Positions 5,601-53,400 of a stretch of 55,768 bases of DNA are shown here, piece after piece (the first letter of the stretch is position 1; each line of letters opens with the position of its first letter). The notes beneath the pieces were generated by a model, which did no database searches, was not told where the DNA came from, and saw only the letters and a list, made by a program, of their open reading frames with translations. This DNA comes from Folioceros fuciformis (lineage: Eukaryota): NCBI GenBank assembly GCA_049999805.1, contig JBNGIO010006380.1, positions 614,735-670,502 on the forward strand, in the 5' to 3' direction. A program made the position numbers and the translations under genes.

Positions 5601-5717
5601 GACCAGAGGGTACAACTTGTCAAACTTCACACCAGTCAGAACCCTGCAGATGTTCTTACCAAGGGGCTCTCTTCGGAGCAATTCGCACAAGCTCGGACAC
5701 TCATGGGCATGAGGTAG
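2686..5717 (+). pseudogene. pol: copia pol (protease, GAG-pre-integrase, integrase, RT, RNase H), with in-frame stops and an N gap
   Basis: Protease LDSGASFHVT at 2686, with TAG stops at 2782 and 2902. Integrase motifs LELVHSDICGP, LRTDNGGEY and QNGVAER. RT motifs YKARLVAKG, LYGLKQAPREW and LYVDDMLI. RNaseH motifs DADYAGD and STTEAEY. The frame change falls within the 100-N gap at 3891-3990. Confidence 0.95.
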
Positions 5718-10292: not shown

Positions 10293-11274
10293 GATTTTCT
10301 GCTCTAGCACCACCTCAACAACAACGACAACGCTGCAGCAGTAGCCCCTGAGGAAGTTGGCGTGCGGATAAATGCCACGGCCGTAACAGACGATACCTGC
10401 CTCTGCACCGTGCGATCGGCCATCGGGCGGTGGAGCCAGCCCGGCCCGCGCGCGCCTCCCTTCCCTTCCCCCGCTCTGGCAACCGTTCTCGCTCCCAGTT
10501 ACCTACCACCCCCCACTTCCGCCCCTCTTCACGCTTTATATACCCTACCTACTTTTTTTACCATCTTTCACCTCTCCGTAGTTCTCGCCGTGTTTTTTAC
10601 TGCCCGCCGTCCTCCCCCAAACTTTCACGAAACAACTCTCTAGCATGCACGCTGCAAACCATGTTTCCCTGCCGCCTGACTCTCAGGATCTCAGAGCAGG
10701 GCAGTTCGTAGACGCTGTCTCCCACCTTTCTGTCAATTTCTCATCTGTTGTATCAGACGACATCTGCTCTGTCGTGTCTACTGTAGATCACAAGGAGAGA
10801 TGGATGCAGGCTGCGTTTCCGATTGCAGAGGGGAGCCGCAAATTCGCACATGATAGATCGGAGTTACTACACCCGGGGCAGCTGGAGTCCTGCATCGAGG
10901 CAGCCCGTTGGAGGTCGGATCCAACTTTCAGGTAGGCGTACCAACCTTTTTCACAAACTTTCACGCTGGGTAACCCTCGTCCTTTTTGCCCCCTTTTTAC
11001 CCATAGTGCCACGGCTGCTTCACGTCCCCCCACCATCGCGTGTTCCGTGTTGTTTGCCTGTGCAGAGCATTAGTGCTGACAAGGTTTTAGAAGAAAATGA
11101 AATGCACGCTTTTAGAGGTCTGATATCCTTTGCAAATGAAGGTTATGAGATGCTGCTGTCGTCAGGGGAGAGGAACGTACTGTGGGGGTTGTCGTAGGGA
11201 GTGGTTGAGCTGGGTGCGTCAAGGATGGTTTGGTGGGAGGGAGGAAGCGTTTGTGTTGATGTGCCGGAGCTGGC

Positions 11275-24847: not shown

Positions 24848-27800
24848 CTACATTTGTGGTCTCGTTTGCACAATGTACAGCTCTCCGTTCTTGATAACAC
24901 CTTCGATGTCTTGAGCAGTGCCCAACAACTTCTCGACAGCTGACCCAACTTCAGCGATCTTGGTGAGGATTTGCTTTTGGAACTCGGTGTCCAACAGCAG
25001 CTTGTCAGTGGAGTAATCCACAGCCTTTTCCTCCTCGTGATCCATGGGCACACTGTCATACAAACCAGCGCCGGCGTATCCTTCGAGGTCTTCTCCGTTT
25101 GAATCAGACCGGAAGATGATAGACTGCTTGATGAACAAGCCTATTCGTTTGCTGGGGTAGCCAAGAACCGTAGGAGCCTTCAAGTTTGTCTTCTTTGTCA
25201 CGAAGCTCAGCGCACGCCCAGAGTAGGCACCCACAAGAGTCTCCCCGAGACCCTTCACCACCTCAGCGTAAATCTCGGATGCATCACCATTTGCCGGGTT
25301 AGTTGTGTGGATGACGAAGGCGTAATCTGCTTGAATCACTTCCTGAACTAGGACCGCCATGCAGAGGTCAGAATGATCGATTCCTGCCTTCCTGGTGCTG
25401 AAGTAGGCTCTTTCATTCCACTTGGACCCCCACACCTTCTTGATGGCCGTCCATGCCAGCTGCCATCTCTTGTCACCCTCGTCCCCGGGCCACGGCATGT
25501 TGGAGCCCTTCATCGCGGTTTTGAGCTCCTCGATCAGCTGGGGTGGGGGTTGCAGCTTCAAGCAGATCTCTCGGGCCTCCTTCAATCGGTGGAAATCGCC
25601 AGCCTGCAACTTCTTACTCAGAGCAGCAAGCTCATCTGCGACTCCACGGTTGATGCTCTCAGACAGCACCTTCTCGAAAGTTCCGAACGGCAGAGCCACA
25701 GACGTCGGCAATTTTACCCACGACGGCACTTTGCCCCTCAAGTTAGCGATGTTCCGAGACTTGGCGCCCACCAGCTCAGGGTTGAACTGCTCTGCTGTAA
25801 TGGCATACTTCCCGGCGAACTTCTTCTTCTTCAACACTATGTGCGGCGGTGGGGCATCGACAAATCCTGCTGCGCCGCCGTGCTTGGACACCTCTGCGTC
25901 CGTTATTTCAGAGTATGCAAGACTGCCACCTTTCAGCTGGATGCTGATAGCCTTGCCCTTCTTCTTCCGCAGATCAGCCAGCACATCTGGGTCAAAGCAT
26001 GTGGCGAAGCACACCTTGCCATTGCGGGCACGCACGGACACATGCGAAAGCACATCCGGCATGTCGGGAGTGAGAACGGCAACAGCACCGTCGGGAATCT
26101 CCTCTTCCCCCTTCACCCTTCCCGAAACCAAGATGGTGGGTTTACCGTATCTCTTATCCTCCACCTCACCGAGTTCGCCCACAACTTCAACGAACCCCCG
26201 TACTTCCACCGGACTGATAACCTGCCAACTCCCAAGATGCGCAATATTCCGCAGAGTAGGATCAAGCAGATTCGCCAACTGCGACAGAGACGCAGCAGAT
26301 CCCGCTCGAATCATCTCCTCCGTAAAGATCTCAATCGCCCACTTTTCCACCCCCAAACGACCACCCAGATACTCTGCAGAAGGCTGCAGAATTGTCTGGT
26401 AGTATTCAGCTTTGTCGGCTAGTATAAGTCTCGTCCTGTCGAGCACCGCCTTGGCCCTCAACGCCCACTGGTCAGCCCCAGCCTTACACAGCTCCAGGAT
26501 ATGGTACCAGTCCTTCAAACAGTACACAAGCTCCTCATTATCGGACACCGACAGGGCCAAGTTCTCCACCACCAAACTGATCACCAGAATCAAATCAGCA
26601 GGCGACGCTTTCCTAAACGACTCCAACCCGCGCTCCACCGCAGTTCGCACGGTGGAATCCAATGCCAGGTCCAGAAAAATGATGTCCCTCAGCCTGTCAT
26701 GGGCAGTCTGCAACGTGGGGCGCAGCTCCCTCCTCGCCTCCAACAAGCCCTCAATCAGCGGCAGAGTTTGCTGATCCTCCACATGCTCCAACACAAACTG
26801 CAGCAATCCAGGCAGATCCGACGACAACCCACTGATAGGATGAATCTTCACTCCACCCATAAAACCCTTCCCCTCTGCAGTATACCCCATACAAGTCTCT
26901 ATCGCAGACTCCAAGTCCGCCCCGGAATGCACCGCCTTCAACGTCCTCATGTAAGCAGTCAGATCCCTCACAAGCCCGTCCTTCTGATCATGCCTGAACT
27001 TGGGCTCCGACACAATCGGCCTGTCATAACTCGCCAACCTCTGCTTCGAGATCCCATTATCTGTCAGAGTCTTCCAGTACGCATCCATACTAAAATCACT
27101 CTGAATATGATCCAACAACGCCTGGCATATCACCACATCGTCCGGACTCGTGTTGTTGTGCAACTTCTGATGCCACTCCTCCATCATCCCCCCCGAACAA
27201 TCATTGTTCCTCTGAATGACAAGAATCTCATCCCGGATCCGCTGCCCAACATCCCCCTGGCCCCCCCTCCCCACAGTCGCCATAATCAACCTCACCATCT
27301 CCCGATTCTCCGGCTGCTCCCTGTACGTCTCCTGCAACAAATTCGTCAGCCTATCCTGCGCAGCACTGACCTGCCTGGGCTTCACATTGTAATTCCTGTT
27401 CCATGTCAGCTGCCTGGTAGCCATAAACCTAAGCCACACCAACATCCNNNNNNNNNNNNNNNNNNNNNNNNNNNNNNNNNNNNNNNNNNNNNNNNNNNNN
27501 NNNNNNNNNNNNNNNNNNNNNNNNNNNNNNNNNNNNNNNNNNNNNNNGCTGCTCCCTGTACGTCTCCTGCAACAAATTCGTCAGCCTATCCTGCGCAGCA
27601 CTGATCTCCCTGGGCTTCACATTGTAATTCCTGTTCCATGTCAGCTGCCTGGTAGCCATAAACCTAAGCCACACCAACATCCCAGCCAAAGCCAACTCCC
27701 CCTCCCTCTTCGCTCTCTCAGCAAACCCGGCAGCAATGTTGTACCGATGCATCAACGATCTCTCCGCCTCGCTCTCCTGGTCAGCAACATCATCCAAAAA

Positions 27801-29384
27801 CGACTTGGCCGTGCCCTCCCCGCCCCCGGCCTTGGCCGCTGCCTTCGCAGCAGCAGCCTGGAACGAAACATAGAAATCCGACCCACTATCCTTATACCAA
27901 TTCCCCCCAACCCTGAACACAAACGGCATCCCCACATATCCACCATCGCCCACAGGAATCTCCACCGACTGCAGCCCGCCATCTCCCGCAAACCCTACTT
28001 TGAACGGCGTCTCGCACGCGCTGGGCCCTAAATTGGAGTCGGCAGGAACAATGTCCTTGGGCGGAGCTAGCCATTCCCGAGCATGTTCCTTGGACAACGC
28101 CCAATGCAACGCCACAGGGTCCTTGATGTTGGTGGCCAGCCTCACCTTCAGAACCCCTTCCGGATTCGTCACCAAAACCAGTAGCTCCTGCCCGTCCCCG
28201 AACCTGAACATCTTCTTCAGCACCACCTTCCCCTGATCCGCCCCCTCCATCACCTCCGCCCCAAGCTCCAGGGGCGTGGGCTGCCTGGGAGGCGGAGGCG
28301 CTGCCGCCGCCGCCTTCCCGCCGCCTTTCACAACTTTGTTGACCAGCTCCACCGGATCTCGACTCTTCCGCTTAACATGCGCCACGGGCACCTCCTTCTC
28401 CTTCTTGGGACTCCCGTTCTCGCTTCCCTTGTCCTGCGCGGCTCCATTCTCCGCCGCGGCTGCCGCCCCGTTCCCGTTGCTCCCGCTGCCGGCATCCTTT
28501 GCGAGAAGCTTCCGCCTGAGCGCGTCGACAGAGGTCCCCTGTGCGACCTCCTCCTGGAGCTCTCTCCTGGCCTCCTCGTACTCCACCTTCTCCTGCTCCG
28601 GGGAGTAGCTCTGCTTCCCTCTGCGCTCCCACCGGAGGTACGCCTGCACCTGGACGAGCTCCTCCGGGAGCTGGATCTGGCTCACGTCCTGCTGCGGGCG
28701 GGGTATTTCCACCCGGAAGTTGCCGCCGTCCAGCTTGAACCAGGCGTTCTTGGCCTCGTCCTTAATGAGGAACTCGATGGCGTTGAGCGCGGGGTCTGTG
28801 AGCTCTATCTTGAGGGCCAGCCCGGCGTCGTCCTTACCGAAGCGGGTCTGGAGGGCCTTGCCCTTATAGTCCGAGGTTCCAGGGGGGCGGGAACCCGGGA
28901 GCAGCCATCCCGTGGACCCCTCCCTGGTGGCGCCCCAGTGCAGAAGGAGCGCGCCCCCGGAGTAGCCCTCCACGCGCACTTCCACCAGGGCGGGCGCGCC
29001 ATTCCCGGCCCCGACCGCCTGCACCTTCACCCTAGCGCCCCCGTCCAGCGCGAATTCCCTCGTTACCCCGACTCCGCGGTCCGTGGCGATCACCGCCCTG
29101 GCCGCCCCGCCTCGCTTCACCCGAGCTCTCTCCGATCTCCCCTTGGCGGCCCGCAGCGGCAGAGGGAGCGGTGTCCCGGCCAAGAACCCACCTCGCAGAC
29201 TCCGCGGCGAGGACGAGGACGGGGACGGGGAGCAGCAGCCGGGGCAGGAGCTCTGCCTCCTGCACGCCGCCGCGCTCACCACCACCGTCTTCCCCCCAAC
29301 ATCCCCCCCCTGCTGCCCCTGCTGGCGCTGTATCTGCACAAAGCCTAGCTGCGATGCTGACCCCGCCCGCAGCGCCTGCATCAT
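24848..29384 (-). CDS. GWD1: Alpha-glucan water dikinase (GWD1/SEX1-like), apparently intronless, with an assembly gap at 27448-27547
   Basis: Transit-peptide-like N-terminus, two CBM45-like modules (LLLHWG, VALHWA), QAYLRWERRGK, phospho-His motif DVLSHVSVRARN, CFATC, SDSNGEDLEGYAGAGLYDS and the C-terminus VQTRPQM. Confidence 0.95.
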
Positions 29385-30537
29385 TCCCCTCCCCGAGTAT
29401 CAGGCAAGGCGAGTCCTCCAACCAGCGGCTTCAGCGATCCCAAAGCGGGCTGTTCCCAGAGCCGATTCGACTCTACTCGACCCGACTCACTCGACTTGAC
29501 TCGGCCTGAACCAGACTGTTGAGAGAATGTCACGACAAAATAGGATCAGTGCCGACCACGCCCTCTCTGCCGAGGTGGGCGAGCCCAGCCAGGCCGAAGC
29601 TTCTGCGAAGGAACTGGGAAAGGGAAAAGGAAAAGGGAAAGAGGGAATGCAACAGGTGTGGGATGGAACGGAAGGAACAGGACCAGGAGGGACCGGTGCC
29701 GGGACAGCAGCGATGGCGTCTCTCAGTGTCTCACAACTGGAGATGAACGCTTTCGCTATTTGAGCCCGGATTGCACTCGTTTGGATCTTTTGGATTTCCA
29801 CGTGTCGAGATATATCAGGGGCATTGGCCGGCTGAGGTTCACATTGCCCGCCACCCTTTGCCCATCTAGAATCTGGCCACCTGTCACCTGCCTTGCTGGA
29901 GATTCACGACACGCGTCCCGGCCTCAACTGCATGCCAGCCTCTCCCTCTCTGCCTTCACAATTGACTCGACACTTGCGCTGCTTTCATTCACCCTCCCGA
30001 CCCCGTGTCTTCCATGGACAAGGCCGTAATATTCATTCCCAGGCCCACAGGCCGGAGCTTGAATGATGCAGGTGAAATGTTTTTCTACTATATGTGTATT
30101 CCTTCTTCCGTGGTCCTCCAGACTCTCCAAACCGAGCTAACATTGGCTGGCGGCTCTCCCTCAAGCTTCGCGTGTCCTTGCGCGGTCCGAGGAAGGTACC
30201 TGAATACCGAAGAAGAAGATAGAAGCACTGCTTTCTTCGTTTTTTGCCGAGAGCAAGCAAGCCAAATAAGCATTACTTAGCCAAGAGCCTAGTGTGCACT
30301 TATAGAAACAGATTATATAGCCAAAAACTTACAAAACGTGGTTAGTTACTTATGGAGGAACATGGAGGGATAGGATACACAAGTGGGCAAGAATGATTAA
30401 GTAGAAGAAGTTGTCAAAGACAAATCGAGTGGAGAAGGAGGAGGAGGAGTACAGCTTCCAAATTTCATTTTCAATTTGATTCGATCAAGAGCTATGTTGC
30501 AAAGACAATGTTCATGAAGTGATTAAGAGGGAAAAAG

Positions 30538-31091: not shown

Positions 31092-33173
31092 TCATTTCTG
31101 TGTCCACGAGTTTACATCCGGGAAACACTCTCTCTGGTTCTCCATGGTTATGTATTCCCATCTATTGGTGACATTGGTGTAATCAAATAAAGGATGAAGG
31201 TGGGTCTGTTGAAACTCTTTGTCAAATACTTTCTCATCGTTGATTGCTTCAGCGATTTCAGGCAAGGTAGCTTCATGAGCAGCCCATTGTCCAAGCCATT
31301 GTACAGTTTCTGTGTCCATGCCAGGGGAAGATTTCCCAACTCGAGGATCAAAGGTTTGAGGATAAGCTCTATGGGACTTGCTTGTCAAGAGCAGATTTTC
31401 CATGGGAAAGTTGTTCTTTTCTAGCCAAGTTGCAACTCCACCAATGTTTTCACCTATGAGTTCTAGTTTCTTAGACCAGGACATCCTTTCACTTGGTTTT
31501 TCATGAGAAAAGTATATTCTTTCAATTTTCTCACGAATGCCTTCCATAAGGCTCCGAAGCCATAATACCATCATAGGCTTCTCAACTCGTTGGCTCTTTC
31601 TTTGATAAAGGCTCAAGTCAGCTTTGATTTTTGGATCTCTTTCAAGATACAAAGCATACATGTCATTGTCTGAATTGACTTCATGGATTTCTTGCAACGT
31701 TGTTGCAATATCTTTCTCCACCTCTTTCAAGTTCTCTAAATTCTCTAAGTGTAATTTCTTCTCTAACAATGTCAATCTTTCTAAGTGTTCATCCCAAGTC
31801 TTGTCAGATAAGCTAATTGCATCTCTAATTTCTGCTACATGAAGTGCAAAAGTAGTTAACAATGCAAAGTTCAACTTGTAGTCAATAATCCTCACAGGCA
31901 AACCACAATCTTTTGAAATCCTTTTCGCCTTATCGAGATCACGATTAGGCAGAAACAAACTATTACTCTCTTCACAAACAAGATGCCAATTAACAATATC
32001 GCGTTCTAAAGTGAACACACTTAACCTATCTCGAATTTCTATTAGATATTTTTGCATTAAACTACTTATATCTTTTAGACTATTTTTAAGTTTCACTAAG
32101 TGACCATAAGTTTTAGCCACATTTAAGAGGGACCCATTAAGCTTATGTTCGACTATTAGAGCAGCATTTTCGTAGTTAGTCCATTCTTCAACTGATCTCA
32201 AAGATGTGCTAAACTGAGGTGACAAAAAAGTTTGGTAACAATCAACATGATGTAAGGAGTGCAAGTTAGCTCTTCCCAAGAAGCTATTGACTTGTTTTGA
32301 TATCAAGTTTGAAACAACATACTTCCCAAGTAGTTGATTGCTGTGATCCAAGTTAATACATTCCATACATTCAGCAAAAATTAAAATGCACTTAACATTT
32401 GACAACTTTAATTTCGACAAAGGGCGTTCAATTCTTGCTTGATCAAGGAACGGTATAACATTAGAATGAGAAGCTTTAAAAGGCTGTTTTGGCTCCAAGT
32501 TGGTCTTATCTACTTTGTTGTTACTTCTAAGTTGTTGTGAGATACAGTCTTGTTGGTGTCTAATTGATTGTATTGCGGAAGCAAATTTTGGAAATATTTT
32601 TGTTTCTTGAAAAAAAGTATTACTTGCTTCATTAAATGCGAAGTAAGGCACCATGAATAATGCATCCAACCACTCTTCATTGTATTTTTTATTTTCAAAA
32701 TATTTGGAATCCAACACTCTTTTTTCTAACGTTGGTATGTGCAAGTGCAAGTTTTTTATGCTCTTTGCCTTGATATCTTCAAGGAAACGAGAAAGAATGT
32801 AATTAGCTTTATTTGGTCCTAAAATTTCTATTAATTTACTACAATGTTCTTGTATATATTGTTGAATATAGGGTAGACTAGCCCAGTATTCATAACTAGC
32901 ATTCTTGCTTCGTTTCCATGCTTCATGGAAATTCTGAGGTAATTGATTTTTTTTGAAGATTTTTTTCAATTGAGTTTTGTTATTTCGAATTAAAAGATTG
33001 GTTTCTACTTTGTAGAAGAGACATTCTCTAGCTTTGTTTAGGCTTTTTGTGTGGTAATTGGGCCAATGTGGTGTTTGAACATCACTAGTATAGTTTCGTT
33101 CAATAACTTGTGTATTTGTGTAATATTTTCTCAATGAATATTCAAAGTATTGAGGAAGATCCATTCCTTTCAA
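31092..33173 (-). CDS. AT-rich intronless orphan ORF (693 aa; first ATG ~33164), function unknown
   Basis: A 2-kb stop-free frame in AT-rich DNA is unlikely by chance. There is a predicted coiled coil (LERLTLLEKKLHLENLENLKEVEKDI). No domain recognised. Confidence 0.6.
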   Translation of the reverse strand: MKGMDLPQYFEYSLRKYYTNTQVIERNYTSDVQTPHWPNYHTKSLNKARECLFYKVETNLLIRNNKTQLKKIFKKNQLPQNFHEAWKRSKNASYEYWASLPYIQQYIQEHCSKLIEILGPNKANYILSRFLEDIKAKSIKNLHLHIPTLEKRVLDSKYFENKKYNEEWLDALFMVPYFAFNEASNTFFQETKIFPKFASAIQSIRHQQDCISQQLRSNNKVDKTNLEPKQPFKASHSNVIPFLDQARIERPLSKLKLSNVKCILIFAECMECINLDHSNQLLGKYVVSNLISKQVNSFLGRANLHSLHHVDCYQTFLSPQFSTSLRSVEEWTNYENAALIVEHKLNGSLLNVAKTYGHLVKLKNSLKDISSLMQKYLIEIRDRLSVFTLERDIVNWHLVCEESNSLFLPNRDLDKAKRISKDCGLPVRIIDYKLNFALLTTFALHVAEIRDAISLSDKTWDEHLERLTLLEKKLHLENLENLKEVEKDIATTLQEIHEVNSDNDMYALYLERDPKIKADLSLYQRKSQRVEKPMMVLWLRSLMEGIREKIERIYFSHEKPSERMSWSKKLELIGENIGGVATWLEKNNFPMENLLLTSKSHRAYPQTFDPRVGKSSPGMDTETVQWLGQWAAHEATLPEIAEAINDEKVFDKEFQQTHLHPLFDYTNVTNRWEYITMENQRECFPDVNSWTQK

Positions 33174-33434
33174 TTTATGAAGTAGGTAAGTAGATTTTAC
33201 TTGTTTTTAAAGTCATCTCAAACTGAGGTTTACTATTGCTCTGGTTTGCTCTCAACTTTGTATATGGGTTGGGTGAGAGCCATGGAACCTTGGCCTCTAA
33301 ACTTTCAGTCCTTATCAAGGAGTGTTTGAAAGTCTATCACACTCACAAGGATAGGCTTCTGCAGCATCTTTTGGCAACATCTGCGCTATCTACAAAGAAA
33401 AGCTTCATCCACATGGTGGTAGGTTGACCCTTTG

Positions 33435-37487: not shown

Positions 37488-40283
37488 TTACAAAACTTGG
37501 TTAAACTCAGGTTCCACGAAGCCGTCAGTTTCATCCAGATTTGCGTTAACAGCAATAGACATTGACTTGACCATGTCTCCAGCATCCAGCCGCATCAGTT
37601 TCACTCCCCTGGTTCTGCGGCCCTGAATAGAAATATCTCGGACCCTCAGACGATTGATGATCCCACTTTGGCTACCGAGGACAACCTGCTCATCGCTTTC
37701 GCCATCGTCTGTCAGCTTTTCTCCCACTACAAACAAACCAACCAAGTAGTCCCCATCCCAATATTTCATTCCAATCGTACCAACTTTCCCTCCCTCGCTG
37801 AAAGAACCCAGAGGCACCCGTTTGCCAAATCCATTCGCAGTCACCAACAGAAGCCAAGGAGGGCCAGTCTTCTCAGTCTCATTCTGACCTTTGCTCAGAT
37901 ATGAGGCGGGCACAATATCCAAGGCTGCCATCCTGTCGCCCTCCTTCAATCTCATAGCTCCTTGTCCTTTTGTGGGCCGTCTCAGTGGCCTCAGCTTACT
38001 GCATCTCCACTCAACCACCTGCCCTCTCTGTGAGCCCATCACGATGATATCATCCTCGGCAGCCTGCCTTACCCACCTTAGCTCATCTCCTCGCTCAAGC
38101 TGCATAGCCACTATGCCTGAAGTCCGGATGGCACCAAACGATGATAGTGAGGTGCGCTTTATAAACCCACCAGTGGTGAGCATCACAAGGTATTGATCTT
38201 CACGGAACTCACTTACAGAGAGTACGGATGTTATCCTTTCTCCTGGTGGCACAGCGAGAATCTGAACAAGAGGGCTACCAATTGCCGTCCGTGAACACTC
38301 GGGAATCTGATACGCACGGAGGGAATATACAACTCCTCTCTCACTAAAAAAAAGTACATAGTCATGAGCTCTGCAAACAAAGAACTTTGATAAGGAGTCA
38401 TCACTTCTCATCTTCTGTCCAGACTTGCCTGAGGTCCCTCGATTTTGGGCAGCGAATGTGTCAGATGCCATCCTTTTGATGTACCCCCTTGCACTTAACG
38501 TGACAAGCATCTCATCATTGGCAATAACATCGATGTCATCTATCTGCCCATCGGTGCCCTGATAAACAACTGTCCGTCGGGGAGTTCCAAAGTCATGTTT
38601 CAATTGCAGGGCTTCCTTTTCTATCAGCTGCAGCACACGCTGCCTACTAGTCAGCACCAGCTTCAAGCTCGATATCTCCGCTGCCAATGCATCATGTTCC
38701 TCTTCAAGTTTCGATTTTTCCAAGCTCGTGAGCCTCCTCAGAGGCATTGCCAACAACCCCTCTGCTTGCACCGCCGACAACCCCAGCTGCTCCTGCAATG
38801 CCCGCGACGCCCCTGCAGCATCCTTAGCAGACCGGATCATCCCCACCGCCTCATCCAACCTCTGCAGCCCAATCAAAAAACCCTGAACCAAATGGTCCCG
38901 GTCGTCCGCTCGCCTAAGCTGAAACCTCGTCCGCCTCTCAATTGTCAAGCACCGAAACTCCAAAAACGCCTCCAGAAACTCCTTCAACCCAAGAGTCCGA
39001 GGCTCCCCATTCCATATCGTAACCATGTTACAACTGAACTGCGTCTGCAGCCCAGTATACTTGTACAAATTATTCAGCACAACCTGCGGCACAACCCCAC
39101 GCTTCACCTCCACCACTATCCTCATCCCAGACCGATCACTCTCATCCCTCACATCACTCACCCCCTCCAACGTCTTATTAGTCACCATATCCGCAATCTG
39201 TTCCACCAATGCTGCCTTATTTGTCTGATACGGCAACTCAGTAATGAAAACCGCAGACCGCCCACTCCTCCCATCCAACTGCTCAATCTGCGCCTTCCCC
39301 CTCAGCGTCAACCGCCCCCTCCCCGTCCTGTAAGCATCGATAATCCCCAAAGTCCCCAAAATCTGCCCTCCTGTGGGAAAATCCGGCGCAGGCACATACT
39401 CCATCAGCTCCTGCACCGTCGCATTCGGATTTCTCATAAACGCACACAACGCATCCGCAATCTCTCCTAGATTGTGAGGCGGGATGTTGGTCGCCATCCC
39501 AACCGCAATTCCCGACGCCCCATTCAACAAAACATTTGGCAACCTCGCCGGCAAAACCACTGGCTCCTGCTGCGACTCATCGAAGTTGTTCGCAAAATCC
39601 ACCGTGTCCATCTCCAAATCCGCCAGTAGCATGGACTCCGACACCGGTTCTAGCCTGCACTCCGTGTACCGCATCGCAGCGGCCGGGTCGGCATCAATGG
39701 AGCCAAAATTCCCATGCCCGTCGATCAAAGGCGACCTCAACGCAAACCTCTGCGCCATCCGCACCAAAGCATCGTACACCGCCGCGTCCCCGTGCGGGTG
39801 GTACTTCCCCAACACCTCCCCCACCACCCTAGCGCTCTTCTTGAAGGCCTTCTTCGAGCTGAGCCCGAGTTCGTGCATTGCGAACAGAATCCTCCTGTGC
39901 ACCGGCTTCAGCCCGTCCCTCACGTCCGGCAGCGCTCGGCCTACGATCACAGACATGGCGTAGGCCACGTACGAATCGGAGGCCTCCTTGTGGACCTCCA
40001 CCTGCACCACCCGCTGGTCCTGCGCCAGCAGAAACCCCGCCTCCGGCCCGGCCCGCCCATCTCCGTCCTCGGAACCTTCCCCGACTGTCCCAGCCGCAGC
40101 AACCGCCTGCTGCTCCCTCCGCATACCCGCACCCCCTCGCGCACCAGCGCTCCACCGCCGGCTACCCTGCCCCCGCAGCAGGAGCCTGCTGGAATTGGAG
40201 ACAGAGGCGCAGGAGGAGAGGAGCCACAGCCTGGAGGTCCTGGCAAGCGGAATTGCGCAGCTCGGGGCCGCGCCCGACACCAT
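37488..40283 (-). CDS. gyrA: Organelle-targeted DNA gyrase subunit A, intronless (start ATG could be 40283, 40307 or further upstream)
   Basis: [34 protein letters not shown], catalytic [22 protein letters not shown], GyrA-box-like QNRGTSGK and beta-pinwheel repeats. The N-terminus is Ser/Arg-rich and transit-like. Confidence 0.96.
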
Positions 40284-40830
40284 GGCCAAGCTCCCCGAGA
40301 GCGTCATTCTGCGGATGCCTTGCCTCGGTACCCAGGAGAAGAAAAGACACGACACGCCTGTTCTGCACAAATGCATTGCGTTTTGCCGCAACCTGTTCGT
40401 CATGTGCACCTTCCCCGCGCCCCAGCACCCTCCAAGGCTGGGCTTTCCCCCTCCCACATTGCGCTCTGCGCTGCCATGGCGTCCCCTGGAGTCATACTCC
40501 ACCAGTCTCCTCCCAGCTTGCTCGATAACACTGTGCCGCCCTTGGGTCTAGGGTTTATCGTCTTTCATTTCAGGCCTGCAAAGTTCAAACAACAAAAACT
40601 GCAATACGGACAGTTCGAGATCAGGACAAAACTGCAATGCGGATAGTTGGAAGATCAGAACACGCAGCCACTTCGCAGTCAGGTGGTGCTCTCAACGAAT
40701 GCAACGCTGGATGCAGCACCAAGCTTGAAGGAATTCCAGTCTATTGTAAGGACGAATGAACGTCAAAGTACGTTTGTACACAGATGGTCATAAATACGAC
40801 AGTTACATTAGGTAGCCTTCAACCTTCTGA

Positions 40831-43355: not shown

Positions 43356-43985
43356 GCACCTCAGCAGGGAGTTCCTAGTCATTAGATCGTTCACACTTAG
43401 GCTGTAGGAATGGATTAGAAAAACATACTCTTATTCTAAGCTTGAGAAAAAGCTATCTCAATCTCGATATGGTTCAAGTATATGTCTTGTTATGTGTCAA
43501 AGAAATAGCAACAAACTTGTCTTTGAATGTAATTTTTATCTTTGTGTTTACCCACATACTTTGATTCTTGATTCATAAAAGAAAGCTCGAGACGTAGTCT
43601 TCAGAATGCGCTATCTGTACTTTCCCTTTGATACCGAAAGGTATTTAAAAACGGGATTTGAAGTGTTTGCCACAAAAGGTTTGAATATAGCTCGCAAACT
43701 ATGGCAACAACGTCCATGCGAGATTGGACCCTGGCATAACCGGGCCTATGTCAGTTGGAAGGTATGGATGAATGACTCTGCATATATGCGGTAACGACTG
43801 TGTGCATGCCACACGCCACAGAGCGCATGCGAGCTGCACCGGCTACCGGTGTGGTGGTGGATCCCACGACTGTCACATGATTGAATTAATAACGTGACAA
43901 GTTCTTAGAGTCGCCAACGCCGCGTCCTCCTTGGTATGATTTTCGGGAAAATGTGGGAGTCTTGGGAAGACTTAATGGACGCGTG

Positions 43986-46223
43986 ATGGCTGCCAGCCCT
44001 GTGCAAATCAAGTTGGCGCTAGCGGTAGCGGTGGCGGACGGGGACGGTGCAGGGGTTGAGCAGGATGTGGTGTGGATGAATGACAAGAGTGATGGTGTGC
44101 CCGCGCAGAGACTGGGAATTGAGGATGGGTTCATGCGTGTGTCAGGAGCCGGGGTTCGGTGTCGAGGACTGTCATCGAAGGAGAGGCAGGAGCTGCTATG
44201 GCAGACCTTCTTCTGGGATCCGGCTCAGTGGTGGGACAACAGGAAGGAAAAGAGAAGTCCCCGCCATCCGGATTTCCGGCACAAGGGATCGAAGAAGGCT
44301 TTGTGGGTAAACAATCGTCACAAGCCTGGCTGGCTGGATTCGCAGCTGGCCATTTGGGATGGGACAGCCTCCGGCTCGGGATCCGGGACGGCAGCTGCCC
44401 GTGAAGGGGGTATGCTGTCTGGAGACGCATGCGGGGGGCTTGCTGAGGTTGTGGATGCCGTGAATGTCTTGGTGCGGCGAGGGTCTCATGTGGACAGTTC
44501 TCTTCTCTATGCTGTGGTTAAGCGGTGCTCAGATGACAAGGATTTGGTCCTTGGTAGGCGTGTTCATGACCTAATTCTGCGGAGTGGGAATGGGGAAGAC
44601 CCGTTTCTGGCGAGCCATATGATTCGCATCTATGCTTCTCATGCCATGTTGGAGGAAGCGAGGCAGGTGTTTGACAGCCTGGGTGTAGCGCTAGCGAATT
44701 CATTTGTGTGGGCTTCCATCATCAAGGCGCATGCGGACCATGGGCAGCCGGCTCGGGCTGTCCGCCTGTACAGACAGATGAGATGTTCGGCTGTGAAGCC
44801 CAACGAATATGTGTTCGTGGCAGTGCTGAAGGCATGTGCTGCTGCAGCTGATCTGGTCTCCGGCAAGGAGGTACATGCTGACATCATGGGGAGTGTGGAT
44901 TGCCCTGACAAGTTTGTAGGGAGCTGCCTGATAGACATGTATGCCAAGTGCGGGAGCCTGGAGGACGCTCGCAGCGTTTTTGACAGCATGGCCACGAAAG
45001 ACGTGGTCGCATGGACTGCCCTGATTTCAGGGTACGTGCAGCATGAGCTTGGTCCAGAAGCCCTCAAACTCTACAGAAACATGCAGCAGGAGGGCCTTGA
45101 GGCAGCTGATCGTGCTACCTTTATTTGCCTCTTGAAGGCCTGTGGGAGTGTCGCAGCTTTGCATCAAGGGAAGCAGCTACATTGTTTGGTCGAGAGAAAT
45201 GGACTGGACGCTGATATACTAGTTGGTAGCTGCTTGGTCGATATGTATGCAAAATGTGGGAGCCTCGAGGATGCTCGTGGAGTGTTTGCCAAATTGGCAA
45301 CTAGAGATGTGGTGGCATGGACTGCTTTGCTCAATGGCTATGCCAAACATGGTGACGGGAAGGCAGCAATACTGTGCTTTGAAGAGATGTTGCACCAAGG
45401 TGTGGAGCCGAACGCTGCGACCTTCGTTTCTCTGCTGGTGGCGTGTTGCCACGAAGGCTTGGTGAAGGAGGGGCAGAGGTATTTCAAGATGATGGTGGAG
45501 GAGCAGGGCATTCCACCCACAGATTCTCACTACAACTGCATGGTTGATCTTCTGGGGCGGTCAGGCCATCTGGACGAGGCAGAAAGTATGCTGCGGACCA
45601 TGCCTTTTGAGAGCGAGTTCGTCGGATGGACATCCTTGCTAGGTTCTTGTAAAAGCTACAGTGACATAGAGCGGGGAAGGCGATGTTTTGATCGTCTGAC
45701 AGCATTGGAACCAGAAAACGCAGCACCCTACGTAGTCTTGGGGAGCCTGTATGCCAAAGCTGGCAGGTGGAAGGATGTAGATACGATTGAGATGCTGAGA
45801 AAGTCAGCAGCTGCTTGGAAGAAGCCTGCCAAGGCGTGCATCGAAGTGAAGGATGAAGTGCACGAGTTCACAGTGGGAGAAGAGAGGCCTGATATCTCAT
45901 CAGAGTTAAGGAGCATGAACTCTCGTGTGAAGGACGAAGGGGGTCATGTTCCGCAAACAGACGTGGTGCTGAGGGCCATGTCCGACAGTGACAAGGAAGA
46001 CGCACTATGTGGACATGCCGAGAAACTGGCCTTAGCTTATGGTTTGATGAACACTCCCGGTGGCACAGCTTTGGTAATAACCAAGAACCTTCGGATGTGC
46101 AACGACTGCCACAGCAGCACGAAGATCCTGTCACGCCTGGAGAACCGAGATATCGTCGTAAGAGATGCGCACCGTGTGCATCAGTTCTCGGACGGGTCTT
46201 GTTCTTGTGGGGATCGTCACTAA
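43986..46223 (+). CDS. PLS-class PPR-E1-E2-DYW:KP (DRH-ending) RNA editing factor with an N-terminal OSB-type PDF motif, intronless
   Basis: About 11 L/S/P repeats (e.g. LIDMYAKCGSLEDARSVFD, VVAWTALISGY), E1/E2, then KKPAKACIEV, HAEKLA, KNLRMCNDCH and SCSCGDRH*. PDF motif WWDNRKEKRSPRHPDFRHKGSKKALW at ~44187-44348. The ORF is open from 43953 and the first in-frame ATG is 43986. Confidence 0.95.
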   Translation: MAASPVQIKLALAVAVADGDGAGVEQDVVWMNDKSDGVPAQRLGIEDGFMRVSGAGVRCRGLSSKERQELLWQTFFWDPAQWWDNRKEKRSPRHPDFRHKGSKKALWVNNRHKPGWLDSQLAIWDGTASGSGSGTAAAREGGMLSGDACGGLAEVVDAVNVLVRRGSHVDSSLLYAVVKRCSDDKDLVLGRRVHDLILRSGNGEDPFLASHMIRIYASHAMLEEARQVFDSLGVALANSFVWASIIKAHADHGQPARAVRLYRQMRCSAVKPNEYVFVAVLKACAAAADLVSGKEVHADIMGSVDCPDKFVGSCLIDMYAKCGSLEDARSVFDSMATKDVVAWTALISGYVQHELGPEALKLYRNMQQEGLEAADRATFICLLKACGSVAALHQGKQLHCLVERNGLDADILVGSCLVDMYAKCGSLEDARGVFAKLATRDVVAWTALLNGYAKHGDGKAAILCFEEMLHQGVEPNAATFVSLLVACCHEGLVKEGQRYFKMMVEEQGIPPTDSHYNCMVDLLGRSGHLDEAESMLRTMPFESEFVGWTSLLGSCKSYSDIERGRRCFDRLTALEPENAAPYVVLGSLYAKAGRWKDVDTIEMLRKSAAAWKKPAKACIEVKDEVHEFTVGEERPDISSELRSMNSRVKDEGGHVPQTDVVLRAMSDSDKEDALCGHAEKLALAYGLMNTPGGTALVITKNLRMCNDCHSSTKILSRLENRDIVVRDAHRVHQFSDGSCSCGDRH

Positions 46224-47484
46224 AGACAGGACGGAGGCTACAAGGCTATCTGAAACGGCATTCCAATCGTGATTAGTGAGTGGGCATGAGACAGGGAAAA
46301 CTCCTGGATCCCTATCTCGTGAGTGGGCATATCCATTTTGCAGTGGACGCACGAATGTCAGTTCCGGTAGCCTTGTAACCTCCGTCCTGACTTTATTCCC
46401 GATCCTAGCACGAACAGAAGCCGTTGGCCATCCACAGTGGGTTCTGGTTTTCTTGTTGCCGCCGTTGTGGGGGATCCAATCCCGATCCCCTCAGAACAGT
46501 ACCCGTCTCAGATAGCCCCTCACAGAGATCGGCAATAGGCACTTCTCCACAACGGCATCCGGTCAGTGAGACGTTCAGTTCAATCAAGGCGCTTGCGGAT
46601 GATTCCAGGTTACAAGATGGCGGCAGATGGTACCCGGGTACGGAATGCCAGCAGGAATGGGAGTCCTTGAGAAATTGCAACAAGCTCGGCTACCGTTGCT
46701 CAGAAGCCTTTCCAAGCCTTCCCCTTACAGCCCGCCATCAAGGTGAGCCCTGTGCCAACGAAAGCCACCACCAAAAGCAGCGGTCCCCTACACTGAAGCC
46801 CCTTTACGGTCTTCACCGTTTTTCTTAGAAGCAAAAAATGAACGGAGACCCACTTGAGAGGCTTAAGACCACCACTGTAAAATGAAGGTCCAAATGGAAG
46901 ATGTAGAAGATAATGTGAGGAAGGTGTAGTATCCTGGTTTCGTGCGCAGACCTTGCTTCAAAGGTTTCACACGGAGGGTAACATCAAAAGTGGCTGAACA
47001 ACAAAATTAAGGCCCAAAGCTTCATCAAGTAATAAAATGATGAAAATGAGATGATTAGTTGATTCCATAGACCTAAGTAAGATTTAGGGTTTAGAGTTCT
47101 CCTAAATCCTATTCATGAATGATAGACAAATGGATGGATAAGGACAATTTTAACACGAAACAAAGAGTCATAGGGTATGATAATACATCTGAAAATAGAA
47201 AAACAATAAAAAAGATCGAAGGCTTTACTATTAAAAAAAAAGTTGATGGAAACCCACGTATGGAGAGTATATGTATCCAGCCAGACCTAGCCTCCTAGGA
47301 GTGGGTATGTAAATAAAAAGGAAAGAAGGGCGAAGCGTGATGTGGGACAAGGACTCGGAGGGAGAGACCGTTGACTGCGTGGTGCGAGTATCGTATCCGA
47401 GAACGGCGACGTGGAGAAGAAACACATGAAGACAAGAAAAGTATTGGCCTTGAGGTGCTGCCTCTTATTGCGTTATCCAGCAGT

Positions 47485-50400: not shown

Positions 50401-53400
50401 AGGGGAGGTCTCTTAAGGATAATGGATTCATCCCGGCAAAGATGGTTCGTGTTCGCATGCTGCACTACTTCTTGTGGACTTATGTCAACAGGTGTAGTGA
50501 GACCAAAGACGATCTGCTTTTGGAAAAGGAAGAGGCCAATGGTGATTCCCCAGCCAATTGCAATCTGCCCGACAAGTGCAATACATTTGTTCTATCTGCT
50601 GCAGTTGCAGCAATGCCACTGGAGCTTTACTTGCAAATAATTGGTTCAACTCAGAATGTTGAGAGACTGCCTGAACGCTGCAAACAAGGAATGCGGATGT
50701 CTGACATTTCTAGTGAGGAGCTCAATGCAATTGTGGAGCGCACGTCAGGGGCAAGACTTTCTTGGCTGGTGGATATATTGTGTCGGTTGCAGGTGAAAGC
50801 ATCAACTGGATTACCACTGTTGTCATTTGTCTGCGCTAGATCTGTTTGGGGTCCACAAGACTCACAACAAGTTGCTTTCCTGGCATGATGGATCTCTGTG
50901 ATGTGCAGTTGGTTCAATTGAAGATGGGTAAAGGGCAGATTTCATGTAAGCATGGGCCCTTGGGTACAACATCAACTTCTTTGTCGTATGCACTCGAGCT
51001 AAAACCGTGGATTGAAGAGCCTGCAACACAGGCACTCCCTACATTCAGTAGTGATGTATTTTCCATGGAACGACATGACTTTGTTTTGTCAAAGAAGGAG
51101 GATTTAGATGTGTATTGGCAGACACTTGAATACGTCTGTTCTGGAGCTGATCCTGGAACGGGCAGGAGAGCATTTCCGGGGTCCAAAGTTCCAGAGGTAA
51201 GGGAATCTGGTTGTTCTGTTGTGTTGACGACTGCACTGCATCGTAGAGCTTGTGTACAGTCGAGTTTTGCAGTGTAGTTGCTGGTACTACAGCCGTTCCC
51301 TATGTCCTGGTGGGATGAGCTGTGCTGTCTGCCACCTTGTATTGGAGACCTTTCTGGTTGGCCAAAAGCATCTTAACTCCCTCTGTGTTCCTGCTTTTTG
51401 GAATGTTCTTGAGGTGGGAATATTGGACTTTTGGATGGGCAGCGAATTGCAAGCAACATAGCTTTGTTCTAAGAGGTTTGCAATGGTTCTTGAAGTTATT
51501 TTGCGTACGATCCTGGACTTCAATACGAATAATGAGCATAGAGCAACGGAGAGAACTCTTCGAGCGAATTGGTGCTGGTGGTCCTGAAACGCGAAAGTCA
51601 GCAGATGAATGTGCAAAGATTGCCAGGGATCTGAATTTGACTGTGGAACAGGTATTTGCTTTCTGTAACCGACAACTGCGTGGGATTTTAACTCCTCCCA
51701 CTTCTCACTACCATTCAGCATCTAGTGATTCTTTACTATTCCTTGGTTTTTACTGGTGGTTGTTTCGCTGGAATAGTTCCATCACGATTTGGTACTTTGT
51801 ATTACGCAGGTCCTTAGGGTCTCTTACGAAAAGAACAGAAAGGTCCGGTTACAGGCCTTGGCGCAAGCAGCAGCAGAGAGTGGAACCTTGCCCGAGGCTA
51901 GTTTGAGCGAGGATGGCAAGGTTCTGCCTAGGAAGCGAGCTGGCATAGAATCAGCAGTGTCTGAACCGGCACATGTTCGGGCATTTAAGAGGCAGCGTCG
52001 ACTTCTTCTTGATGCTTCAACTGTTACTTCCCCTGCTGCTGCATCTCAGTCTGACAGCAAGCAGGCAGCTGCACGAAATGTCGAGGAGGGGAACCAACTG
52101 TCTCAGGAGGAAGAGGAGGAAGAAGAGGAGGAGGATGATGTCTGTGGCCAGGGGGAAGCGCCTGGCAGTTGTGTAGCTTTCTTGAGACCTTCACGCTCAA
52201 GAAGATTTCCATGGTCGGACAGGCTGGACAGGTGAGCTGTGCTTCGAGTAGTTTGTGGAACATTGGAAGGACCCCTACTGAGGTGCCAACTGATCTCTGG
52301 TACATTTCTGTTTGCTTCTTGCAGAATTTTGATAGCTTGCTATTGCAAGCAGCGTGCTATACTGGGAGCTCGGCACCATCGTGTTGATTGGAGTAAAGTA
52401 CCCGGCCTTCCTGCGAAACCCACATTATGCCGCAGAAGAATGGCACTTTTGCGAACAGATGCAACTGTACGGTCTGCTATTTCCAACCTTTGTTCATTGC
52501 TCTCTGCAAGATATTTGGAGTCCCTTGAGGTATCTAGAGCTGGAGAGGGTCAGAGAGAGGCTCAACATTTAAGGAGACCCATTACTGGCTCTAAAAGTCT
52601 TGGTTTGGTTTTAAGTTCGGAACCTGCCACTTCACGTTTGGAAGGAGCAGAACTGGAGGAAGATGGCAGTACACAAGTATCTAGTTGTTCAAGTCTTGCT
52701 GGAACTAAGCAGGGGCAGTTCTCAACTTGGGACAACTTGGAAGATCTGCCAGTCTTGCGAGGGCTTGAGGAGGTCATGAGATGCAAGATTGAGGCACGAG
52801 CTAGGAGGCTTAGTGGTGCAATTGGACGGGGGGCATCAAAGAACAAGTTGGGAATGTTACAAAGAGAATCATCTCAGAAGCACAGCTTAGAAAACTCTGA
52901 TGTGGATGCTCCACATATCCAGGCTCCTGCATCATCTTTCAAACCCCGCTGTCCATCAAAGATTGACAACACTGCTTTGAGTGTATGTGCCCGCCCTGGA
53001 ACTGGAACTGGAACGCGTGCTGTTCGCTCACGGGCCCGACCCAGACCAGTGTTGAAGCCTTTACTATCCCTGCCGAGTACTGATGAGATAGTTCGAAGCT
53101 CCCTTAAAGTGGCCAATTGTATTGAACTTCTCAAGCTAATTCTGCTCAATGCTGGTGCAATGGATCGAGACCCTTTGGTTGATGCTCTGAAGAGATATAA
53201 GCATGGAGATGTATTAACAGCTTTCACTTTTTTACGATATCATGAACTTGTGGTAGGTACACCTGCATGTCTCTTGTTTTGCCGTTCAGGTTGCTGAACT
53301 TTTAAAGTTTAAAGGGAATGACATTGTCCCGTGGGTTTTGGTCGAGATCTGGACAAGAGGGGATCTTATACTTTCTGTGCGTGATAACAGGATGTGGCTC

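Follow-up and report, generated by a model that had tools for sequence, protein, structure and literature searches.

An OSB-type PDF motif fused to a DYW:KP-type PPR protein, and similar PDF-PPR fusions in non-seed land plants

The PDF motif is known from the OSB proteins, such as OSB1-4 of Arabidopsis and an OSB3-like protein of quinoa. It is defined as a segment of about 50 amino acids with a conserved Pro-Asp-Phe and flanking W, WWDNR, K and LW residues (PMC6963530, PMC4166229). In AtOSB1 the motif alone suffices for ssDNA binding (PMC6963530), and OSB1 and OSB2 favour ssDNA over dsDNA or RNA (PMC4166229). In OSBs, an SSB-like OB fold occupies the centre and the PDF copies lie C-terminal to it. 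The protein studied here, encoded in a window of 55,768 nucleotides (the whole stretch of DNA that was analysed) and hereafter called the window protein, has the PDF motif in common with the OSBs; unlike them, it has no OB fold and contains a single N-terminal PDF (residues 61-125 of 745) followed by PPR, E and DYW parts. In a survey of OSBs, a protein had to possess an OB as well as a PDF domain to be admitted (PMC13393729), so that PPR fusions would drop out of it.

The second group of described relatives is that of the PPR-DYW:KP proteins, found in hornworts, lycophytes and ferns and including the synthetic KP6 and its relatives, all of which have the same PLS array, E motif and 133-aa DYW:KP domain as the window protein (PMC9478123, PMC11845758). 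The class is recognised by KP in place of PG, Ala or Cys after the zinc-binding His, a variable C-terminal triplet, and Lys88 in KP6; for the natural KP proteins, activity is given as still undemonstrated (PMC11845758). The same paper reports that a proteinase step was needed for U-to-C products to become visible. Among the matches listed, KP-type database proteins are 50 to 57% identical to the window protein. Unlike it, 24 of the 26 KP-type relatives among the best 120 of 4301 PPR matches have no PDF.

Fusion of a PPR tract with a second nucleic-acid-related module is a principle that the window protein shares with certain PPR proteins of Physcomitrium. The RRM, SMR, NYN, LAGLIDADG, CBS and SAP partners are mostly found on P-class PPR proteins, whereas the PDF motif of the window protein stands on an editing-type protein of the PLS class. 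These partners are the accessory domains that PMC9459714 lists for Physcomitrium PPR proteins, and PDF is not on that list.

The gene is an intronless open reading frame of 745 aa plus stop, at positions 43986-46223 of the (+) strand, with no internal stop in the letters of the window. Its parts follow one another in the order PDF motif, Gly/Ser-rich linker, PLS PPR array, E motif and DYW:KP domain (Table 1). In the same frame, Pfam matches the PPR tract as 7 stretches (E = 9e-48) and the E motif with E = 2.7e-12. The array, read by eye as 11 motifs, is followed by the E motif as in PLS-class editing factors, the assignment of single motifs to P, L or S being made by eye as well. The single frame and the Gly/Ser linker of the initial annotation are thus both present. 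A merger of two genes through an artefact of the gene model was considered and is excluded by the open frame, by one contig that runs across the junction, and by collinear relatives. We read the gene as that of an intact, nuclear, organelle-type PLS-class PPR editing factor of the DYW:KP class, within an overall explanation that we believe and doubt in about equal measure.

Table 1. Features of the PDF-PPR gene; positions are those of the window
Feature	Residues	Position	Strand	Basis or remark
In-frame ATG	Met50	44133..44135	+	First in-frame start within X1 contig
OSB-type PDF motif	61-125	44166..44360	+	Motif searches; local profile E 3e-28
PDF motif core (stretch quoted in the initial annotation)	68-121	44187-44348	+	
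Gly/Ser/Ala-rich linker (Gly/Ser part, 126-135)	126-160	44361..44465	+	Poorly conserved
PLS-class PPR array	~161-557	44466..45656	+	Pfam PPR, PPR_1, PPR_2, PPR_3; phmmer span 161-615
E motif region	558-619	45657..45842	+	Pfam PF20431
KP-type DYW deaminase domain (133 aa)	613-745	45822..46220	+	Pfam and signatures

With residues 55-135 as query, a HMMER scan of a database of 1.84 billion representatives returned 703 proteins at E <= 1e-3, of which 227 had E <= 1e-10 and 17 had E <= 1e-30. The Chenopodium quinoa reference (NCBI name 'OSB3, chloroplastic/mitochondrial-like', a protein with an SSB domain) has four PDF repeats, and by BLASTP the motif aligned with every one of them, at 40 to 57% identity and with E values from 1e-17 to 5e-15. 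On sequence comparison, this similarity is far past chance level. Moreover, the window motif agrees with the consensus of the non-PPR motifs, most of them OSB-type, at every column that is conserved in at least 80% of them; relative to the PPR-linked motifs, the match is complete at such columns but for one, with Leu for Val. Aromatic and basic residues (W, F, R, K) make up the invariant positions of PDF motifs. Together with Pro-Asp-Phe and the W, WWDNR, K and LW positions, the resemblance to bona fide OSB repeats confirms the segment, at the sequence level, as a genuine OSB-type PDF motif, as the initial annotation had proposed.

An OB or SSB domain was searched for with Pfam and gave no match, either with the whole protein (E <= 1) or with residues 1-166 (E <= 10), whereas PF00436 is present in OSB-type matches; the window protein is therefore not an OSB, and has only a module in common with them. 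No Pfam model matched the motif itself in residues 1-166 at E <= 10. A word-indexed protein search with residues 55-135 also gave no match, at near or shorter lengths, which we attribute to a limit of the index because the HMMER scan had yielded 703 matches. AF2 predicts an autonomous fold for the motif (mean pLDDT 84), in which a small sheet would lie between two helices. Comparison of the motif with PDB sequences gave chance-level rows only (best E 0.45), and the ESM Atlas gave no usable match. With the AF2 model, Foldseek against the PDB returned no row at E <= 1e-3, and the best Z of a wide VIA-align search was 4.1, none reaching 5; this absence of a solved match does not imply a new fold.

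At the other end of the protein, Pfam places the DYW_deaminase model (PF14432) at residues 653-743 (E = 1.4e-34). The domain opens at residue 613 with a KP box, not PG, and ends in DRH, not DYW. The HAE at 677-679 (46014-46022) has Ala instead of Ser after the zinc-binding His, and with CxxCH at 705-709 (46098-46112) the HxE...CxxC zinc/catalytic signature is complete. Counted from the K that begins the KP box, Lys700 (46083-46085) has an offset of 88, which is domain position 88, and its match to the active-site Lys88 of KP6 is one of position only. DYW:KP is the class linked to U-to-C editing, and U-to-C activity of the window protein is predicted on this ground.

The gene is contained in a single run, X1, whose contigs are called transcript-like and whose nature as RNA is a guess. 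Two of these contigs cover 44104..46700 (+) with zero differing letters relative to the window. The contig at 44104-45272 joins the coding parts of PDF and PPR with no gap, and the other extends from 45249 to past 46700. The gene is probably expressed, and one contig of this putative RNA run holds both parts of the fusion. Over 43400-44103, X1 showed no coverage, and this empty interval was not taken as evidence for the transcript start. The ATGs at 43986 (Met1) and 44076 (Met31) lie upstream of all X1 cover and are hence unsupported by it; the first in-frame ATG under X1 cover is that of Met50 (Table 1), and an out-of-frame ATG lies at 44125. All three candidate starts, Met50 included, lie upstream of the PDF motif, and the following Met is residue 143. 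Counted from Met1, the segment before the motif has 9 acidic residues among 66, which is atypical of a presequence.

Fusions of PDF with PPR tracts recur in other plants. Among the best 150 of the 703 motif matches, 15 carry PPRs, and they come from Diphasiastrum, Sphagnum, Ceratopteris, Pteridium and Adiantum. The closest 120 of the 4301 full-length PPR matches held 118 new proteins, 36 of which have one to three N-terminal PDF motifs; the majority of these 36 are E-type or DYW:PG, and 5 of them show the second motif half only, at residue 2-5, as some gene models are cut N-terminally. Within the same best 120, the motif was found in 25 of the 38 Diphasiastrum rows, in rows of Calypogeia, Sphagnum and Ceratodon, and in none of the 12 seed-plant rows. 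The view that PLS factors normally have no such domain therefore agrees with the seed-plant rows and fails for non-seed plants. Over both sets (best 150 of 703 and best 120 of 4301), the counts, which are weighted by Diphasiastrum paralogues, come to at least 64 PDF+PPR proteins, with 3 of KP type, 20 of HSE/DYW type and 41 without a DYW domain.

The carriers in Diphasiastrum complanatum, Sphagnum spp., Ceratodon purpureus, Calypogeia fissa, Ceratopteris richardii, Adiantum capillus-veneris and Pteridium aquilinum have the part order of the window protein, namely presequence, one to three PDF motifs, a short linker and a PLS array. They are E-type or DYW:PG-type, unlike the KP-type window protein. 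The Ceratodon carriers include a DYW protein, P0257. In the databases, their entries are labelled 'hypothetical' or 'pentatricopeptide repeat protein'. KP-type carriers among the matches listed are limited to the window protein, P0219 and P0221. The latter two are collinear with it from the PDF motif to the first PPRs, and P0221 departs from the WWDNR stretch at two of its hallmark positions. Among the matches listed, the five closest KP-type relatives (54 to 57% identity) have no PDF.

Judging from these sequences, mosses, liverworts, lycophytes and ferns commonly carry the fusion, which is apparently undescribed. A search of one literature library gave no account of it. The initial annotation had named, as counting against its proposal, an architecture that is both already described and common to all DYW classes; the sequences show the second half of this, and for the first half no description was found.

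We then consider conservation and origin. When compared with six relatives, the PDF motif is identical at 31 to 37 of 65 residues and the linker at 6 to 9 of 29 to 35 aligned residues, while the presequence is hardly alignable. The motif is about as conserved as the PPR core, and the segments on both sides of it have diverged. A tree was built from 412 motif instances; on it, the PPR/non-PPR label requires 11 changes, compared to 56 to 62 when shuffled (10 shuffles), and the four nearest neighbours of the window motif are all PPR-linked. A single clade of PPR-linked motifs was not rejected by the AU test (p = 0.873). The most likely origin is one ancient fusion, which then spread with the duplication of the PLS family. 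The window protein may belong to an old PDF-PLS-PPR subfamily that is widespread among non-seed land plants, a placement that shares the evenly balanced standing of the overall explanation. By its sequences, this subfamily would span E-type and DYW:PG proteins, with DYW:KP proteins as a rarer component.

How might such a protein work? We propose that the PPR array would choose the site on the RNA, where the DYW:KP domain would convert the base, while the PDF motif, on its flexible Gly/Ser linker, would serve as a sequence-independent anchor to ssDNA. Bound in this way to transcription bubbles, R-loops or replication intermediates, the factor would stay with the nucleoid and meet nascent transcripts at high local concentration. 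The sequences show the architecture, the homology and its distribution, and the selective conservation of the motif; that PDF binds ssDNA when placed next to PPRs, that it tethers the protein to the nucleoid, and that the enzyme acts from U to C, we infer. Taken whole, with PDF as the ssDNA/nucleoid anchor, we would give this explanation an even chance. PPR56 works in E. coli as a construct with just 14 aa upstream of its first PPR (PMC10482289), so that an N-terminal module is dispensable for catalysis as such.

The PDF motif could instead be a sequence-independent clamp on single-stranded RNA, 5' of the PPR footprint, which would raise affinity or residence time with no tether to the nucleoid. 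PPR proteins bind RNA in parallel mode, and given this mode it is upstream RNA that should lie beside the PDF; in the carriers among the matches listed, the motif is always immediately N-terminal to the array, with a short and variable linker. Since MORF-type helper proteins of seed plants are absent from non-seed plants (PMC9459714), a helper in cis is conceivable. However, the reported preference of OSB1 and OSB2 for ssDNA over RNA (PMC4166229) speaks against a clamp of this kind, and carriers reach 1100 to 1280 aa, so that PDF is not limited to short arrays. We regard the clamp as rather unlikely.

More doubtful is a role in protein-protein contacts, by which the motif would recruit the factor to OSBs or other PDF-bearing proteins, or form dimers. 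The reported tetrameric state of OSB2 (PMC6963530) and the tandem PDF copies, 2 to 13 in number, of many proteins would fit such a module, as would the predicted fold of two helices flanking a small sheet, for which no solved counterpart was returned. Yet in the literature consulted, the one function assigned to the motif as such is to bind ssDNA (PMC6963530), and the invariant W, F, R and K are of the kind that typically make up nucleic-acid contact surfaces.

The initial annotation suggests a further reading, in which the fusion is an adaptation of U-to-C (DYW:KP) editors. Three proteins (the window protein, P0219 and P0221) do pair PDF with a KP-type domain, but among the DYW-bearing rows of the best 120 of 4301 the motif occurs in 2 of 26 KP-type proteins, compared to 19 of 42 HSE-type (PG-like) ones. 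The DYW-less majority of the PDF+PPR proteins among the matches listed, and the carriers in Sphagnum, Ceratodon and Calypogeia, argue in the same direction; the special link is contradicted, and we consider it very improbable. Just as improbable is a relic outside the mature protein or devoid of function, for although the start codon is uncertain and editing factors can do without their N-terminal parts when assayed in E. coli (PMC10482289), every candidate start precedes the motif, the motif is kept like the PPR core between diverged flanks, and its columns of at least 80% conservation are retained in full relative to OSB-type motifs and with one exception relative to PPR-linked ones, the carriers ranging from liverwort and moss to lycophyte and fern.

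Returning to the ssDNA anchor, a more far-reaching idea, which we put forward tentatively and think rather unlikely as it stands, is that the PDF-PLS proteins are an ancient, land-plant-wide class of ssDNA-anchored editing factors, lost or rare in seed plants and attached to the ssDNA of the organelles. If so, at the nucleoid of bryophytes, lycophytes, ferns and the plant of the window, editing would be tied to transcription or to replication, and a PDF in cis would take over part of what the separate helpers MORF/RIP and ORRM do in seed plants. The anchoring would concern editors of both directions, C-to-U as well as U-to-C.

The usual picture of a PPR editing factor has two parts, an RNA-reading PPR tract and a deaminase, and in non-seed plants such factors are assumed to need no helpers. 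Should many of them carry a conserved module that binds ssDNA, as the PDF motif on two thirds of the Diphasiastrum rows listed may do, this would be an overlooked third part, one that would tie editing to the nucleoid; and PDF would prove to be a portable module, not a feature of OSBs only. Heterologous assays and designer editors routinely drop everything upstream of the first PPR, so that any contribution of such a module would escape notice. For U-to-C editors, the native N-terminus may merit retention in test constructs.

The window is plant nuclear DNA, and its long open frames are listed in the table together with the Pfam domains of the 745-aa protein. For a land-plant GWD, the GWD1-like gene is strikingly intron-poor. 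The gyrase A gene is an organellar DNA-maintenance gene, and its closeness to the PPR gene is probably a coincidence.

Long frames of the window (nucleotide positions) and Pfam domains of the 745-aa protein (residue positions)
Feature	Position	Strand	Details
Copia-type retroelement	2905-5717	+	gag-pre-integrase, integrase core, RVT_2; internal 100-N run 3891-3990
FRIGIDA-like frame	8751-10502	-	
Long frame	11260-13152	+	630 aa; no Pfam match at E <= 1e-3
WD40-repeat frame	14257-16332	-	
Alpha-glucan water dikinase (GWD1-like)	24848-29399	-	two very long open frames, 910 and 656 aa, with the sole break near a 100-N run (27448-27547)
Long frame	31092-33206	-	704 aa; no Pfam match at E <= 1e-3
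Organelle-type DNA gyrase subunit A	37488-40547	-	intronless single 1019-aa frame, 3.4 kb upstream of the PPR gene
PPR gene	43986-46223	+	uninterrupted ORF, 745 aa
PPR repeats (PF01535; also PPR_1, PPR_2, PPR_3)			7 stretches, E 9e-48
E motif	residues 558-619		E 2.7e-12
DYW_deaminase	residues 653-743		E 1.4e-34
Long frame	52236-53297	+	353 aa; no Pfam match at E <= 1e-3

About 11 PLS motifs (counted by eye) precede E1/E2 in the PPR protein. Its DYW domain, 133 aa long, has intact catalytic signatures and is of KP type by the criteria set out in the accessible text of PMC11845758: a KP pair replaces PG at its start (residue 613), the zinc-binding His is followed by Ala (HAE at 677), CxxCH lies at 705, the C-terminus is not DYW, and a Lys lies at a distance of exactly 88 residues from the K in that KP pair, which fits the Lys88 numbering of that source. 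Residues 1-166 had no Pfam match, even at E <= 10.

Judged by its sequence, the N-terminal segment holds a PDF motif, which the available parts of PMC6963530 and PMC4166229 define as a module of about 50 aa marked by Pro-Asp-Phe. Residues 55-135 alone, searched by phmmer in a set of 1.84 billion representative proteins, had 703 matches at E <= 1e-3, of which 227 reached 1e-10 and 17 reached 1e-30. Among the best 150 of these 703, many contain 2 to 13 matched stretches. One top match, P0005 (E 2.6e-51, 4 stretches), is named 'protein OSB3, chloroplastic/mitochondrial-like' at NCBI and carries a Pfam SSB domain over the curated cut-off; by BLASTP the segment aligned with all four of its PDF repeats (40-57% identity, E 1e-17 to 5e-15). 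When 20 matches were scanned, five further proteins (P0025, P0071, P0118, P0021 and P0061) had SSB similarity at E <= 1e-4, under the curated cut-off in the last two, and P0002 and P0012 had weak similarity. With a local profile made by running jackhmmer over 302 proteins, the motif scored E 3e-28. It has the consensus residue at all columns at least 80% conserved among other, mostly OSB-type, motifs, and at all but one (Leu for Val) of those so conserved among PPR-linked motifs. The OSB-type identity initially proposed is thus borne out. The protein shares this motif with OSB proteins but is not itself an OSB, since no OB/SSB domain was found in it with Pfam and its motif is N-terminal.

AlphaFold2, run on residues 55-135 with an alignment of 34 rows of short single-motif proteins, predicted a confident small domain of helix, small sheet and helix (mean pLDDT 84; 42 residues at 90 or more). 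Foldseek found no match to this model in the PDB at E <= 1e-3, the best Z in a wide VIA-align was 4.1, and no solved relative of the motif was found in the PDB by sequence.

The reading frame runs on without a stop from the PDF motif to the PPR array. A single public sequencing run (X1), available as contigs and tentatively labelled 'RNA?', contains the gene. A 1169-nt X1 contig matches 44104-45272 letter for letter and without a gap, and therefore spans the PDF-PPR junction; a second runs from 45249 to past 46700. The claim that both parts lie in one intronless ORF thus agrees with the open frame and the gapless contig. X1 has no coverage of 43400-44103, which leaves the two ATGs at 43986 and 44076 unsupported. 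The in-frame ATG at 44133 (Met50) is 18 residues upstream of the motif, and the following Met is residue 143. An out-of-frame ATG occurs at 44125-44127 (+), 8 nt upstream of the Met50 codon and inside the stretch that the transcript-like contig covers; with an mRNA start near 44104, a short, overlapping upstream frame would begin there. In relatives, 22 to 100 residues precede the motif, often Arg/Ser-rich, acid-poor and resembling organellar presequences. Counted from Met1, the pre-motif segment of the window protein is more acidic (9 of 66 residues).

In the mechanism we propose, the PPR tract would select a site on organellar RNA, where the DYW:KP domain would carry out U-to-C conversion, an activity known for synthetic KP proteins and, according to PMC11845758, not established for natural ones. 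On its flexible linker, the PDF module would bind single-stranded nucleic acid sequence-independently; as an anchor to nucleoid ssDNA it would place the editing factor beside nascent transcripts. We favour this anchoring role, at somewhat less than even confidence, because the motif is reported to bind ssDNA (in AtOSB1 it is sufficient to do so; PMC6963530, in part) and because OSB1 and OSB2 favour ssDNA over both dsDNA and RNA (PMC4166229, in part). The same preference tells against an RNA clamp 5' of the PPR footprint, which we consider unlikely; a role as a protein-interaction module seems more doubtful still. Editing factors are active in E. coli when all but 14 of the residues preceding the first PPR have been removed, according to the sections of PMC10482289 at hand, which counts against an essential catalytic role of the PDF module.

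The fusion is recurrent. Among the best 150 of the 703 motif matches, 15 are similar to the PPR-DYW part of the window protein as well; named sources are Diphasiastrum complanatum, Sphagnum species, Ceratopteris richardii, Pteridium aquilinum and Adiantum capillus-veneris. A whole-protein search added 118 new proteins among the best 120 of its 4301 PPR matches, and 36 of the 118 have one to three N-terminal PDF motifs by the local profile. Five of the 36 carry the second motif half alone, at residues 2-5, pointing to N-terminally truncated gene models. By our own count over the rows of these best 120, the motif occurs in Diphasiastrum (25 of 38 rows, 24 loci), Calypogeia fissa (3 of 4), Sphagnum (2 of 3) and Ceratodon (1 of 2), and in none of the rows from Adiantum (9), Ceratopteris (2), Cryptomeria (3) or those prefixed 'Gb_' (9), which we take to be Ginkgo. 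Two Diphasiastrum proteins, P0197 and P0264, have a degenerate half PDF at about residues 120-145, upstream of a complete motif, suggesting that one copy decayed in formerly two-copy proteins. The representative match P0064 (1526 aa) combines PDF stretches with a kinesin motor domain in one predicted protein, which could reflect the merging of gene models or a further PDF fusion.

At least 64 proteins, isoforms and cluster members counted, have both PDF and PPRs. A DYW domain is present in 23, while the other 41 stop at the E motif or close to it. Of the 23, three belong to the KP type, namely the window protein and the matched proteins P0219 and P0221, and 20 are HSE-type, ending in DYW or DSW. 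P0219 and P0221 are collinear with the window protein over motif, linker and first PPRs, the main difference being the number of internal PLS triplets. A special link to DYW:KP editors had also been proposed. Among the 118 new proteins, 73 have a DYW domain; PDF was found in 2 of the 26 that are KP-like by HAE or HCE, in 19 of the 42 HSE-type (two of them ambiguous, with a KP-like box) and in none of the 5 with another residue after His. PDF is therefore not enriched but rarer in KP proteins within this sample, which is skewed to Diphasiastrum paralogues and whose KP rows are mostly short contigs with possibly cut ORFs. The proposed link fails here, and a KP-specific adaptation, contradicted by this distribution of carriers, is very improbable.

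Against six relatives, the PDF segment has 31 to 37 identities in 65 residues and the linker 6 to 9 per 29-35 aligned residues, while the part before the motif is barely alignable; the first PPRs have 68 to 75 identities per 126-138 against the three closest relatives. The module is therefore conserved like the functional core and the flanks are not, and this conservation leaves very little chance that it is a functionless relic. A FastTree was built from 412 distinct instances of the motif (62 of them PPR-linked, 350 other); on it, the PPR/other label required 11 changes, compared with 56 to 62 in 10 label shuffles. This clustering counts for little, because related sequences cluster anyway. 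The four nearest neighbours of the window motif are all PPR-linked. For a thinned set (39 PPR-linked, 70 other), a common clade uniting the PPR-linked motifs was not rejected by an AU test (p 0.873), and the constrained tree was 38 log-likelihood units better than a quick free search. The result is compatible with one ancient fusion, without proving it: the alignment has just 65 columns, and some 'other' rows are short fragments and maybe truncated PPR fusions.

Among the searched papers that mention the 'PDF motif', some of them on OSBs, none is on PPRs, and no description of a PDF/OSB fusion to pentatricopeptide/DYW proteins was found (most subscription journals lay outside the search), in keeping with the initial annotation, which knew of no functional description of this architecture. 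PDF does not figure in the list of extra domains of Physcomitrium PPR proteins in the available text of PMC9459714 (RRM, LAGLIDADG, SMR, NYN, CBS, SAP), and a 2026 OSB survey, by the portion of PMC13393729 consulted, was restricted to proteins that combine OB with PDF. The initial annotation had also considered that the architecture might be already described and common to all DYW classes: it is shared by KP and HSE carriers, but no description came to light. PDF-PPR is apparently a new, unnoticed domain architecture made from two known modules, and the window gene is a rarer, KP-type member of it.
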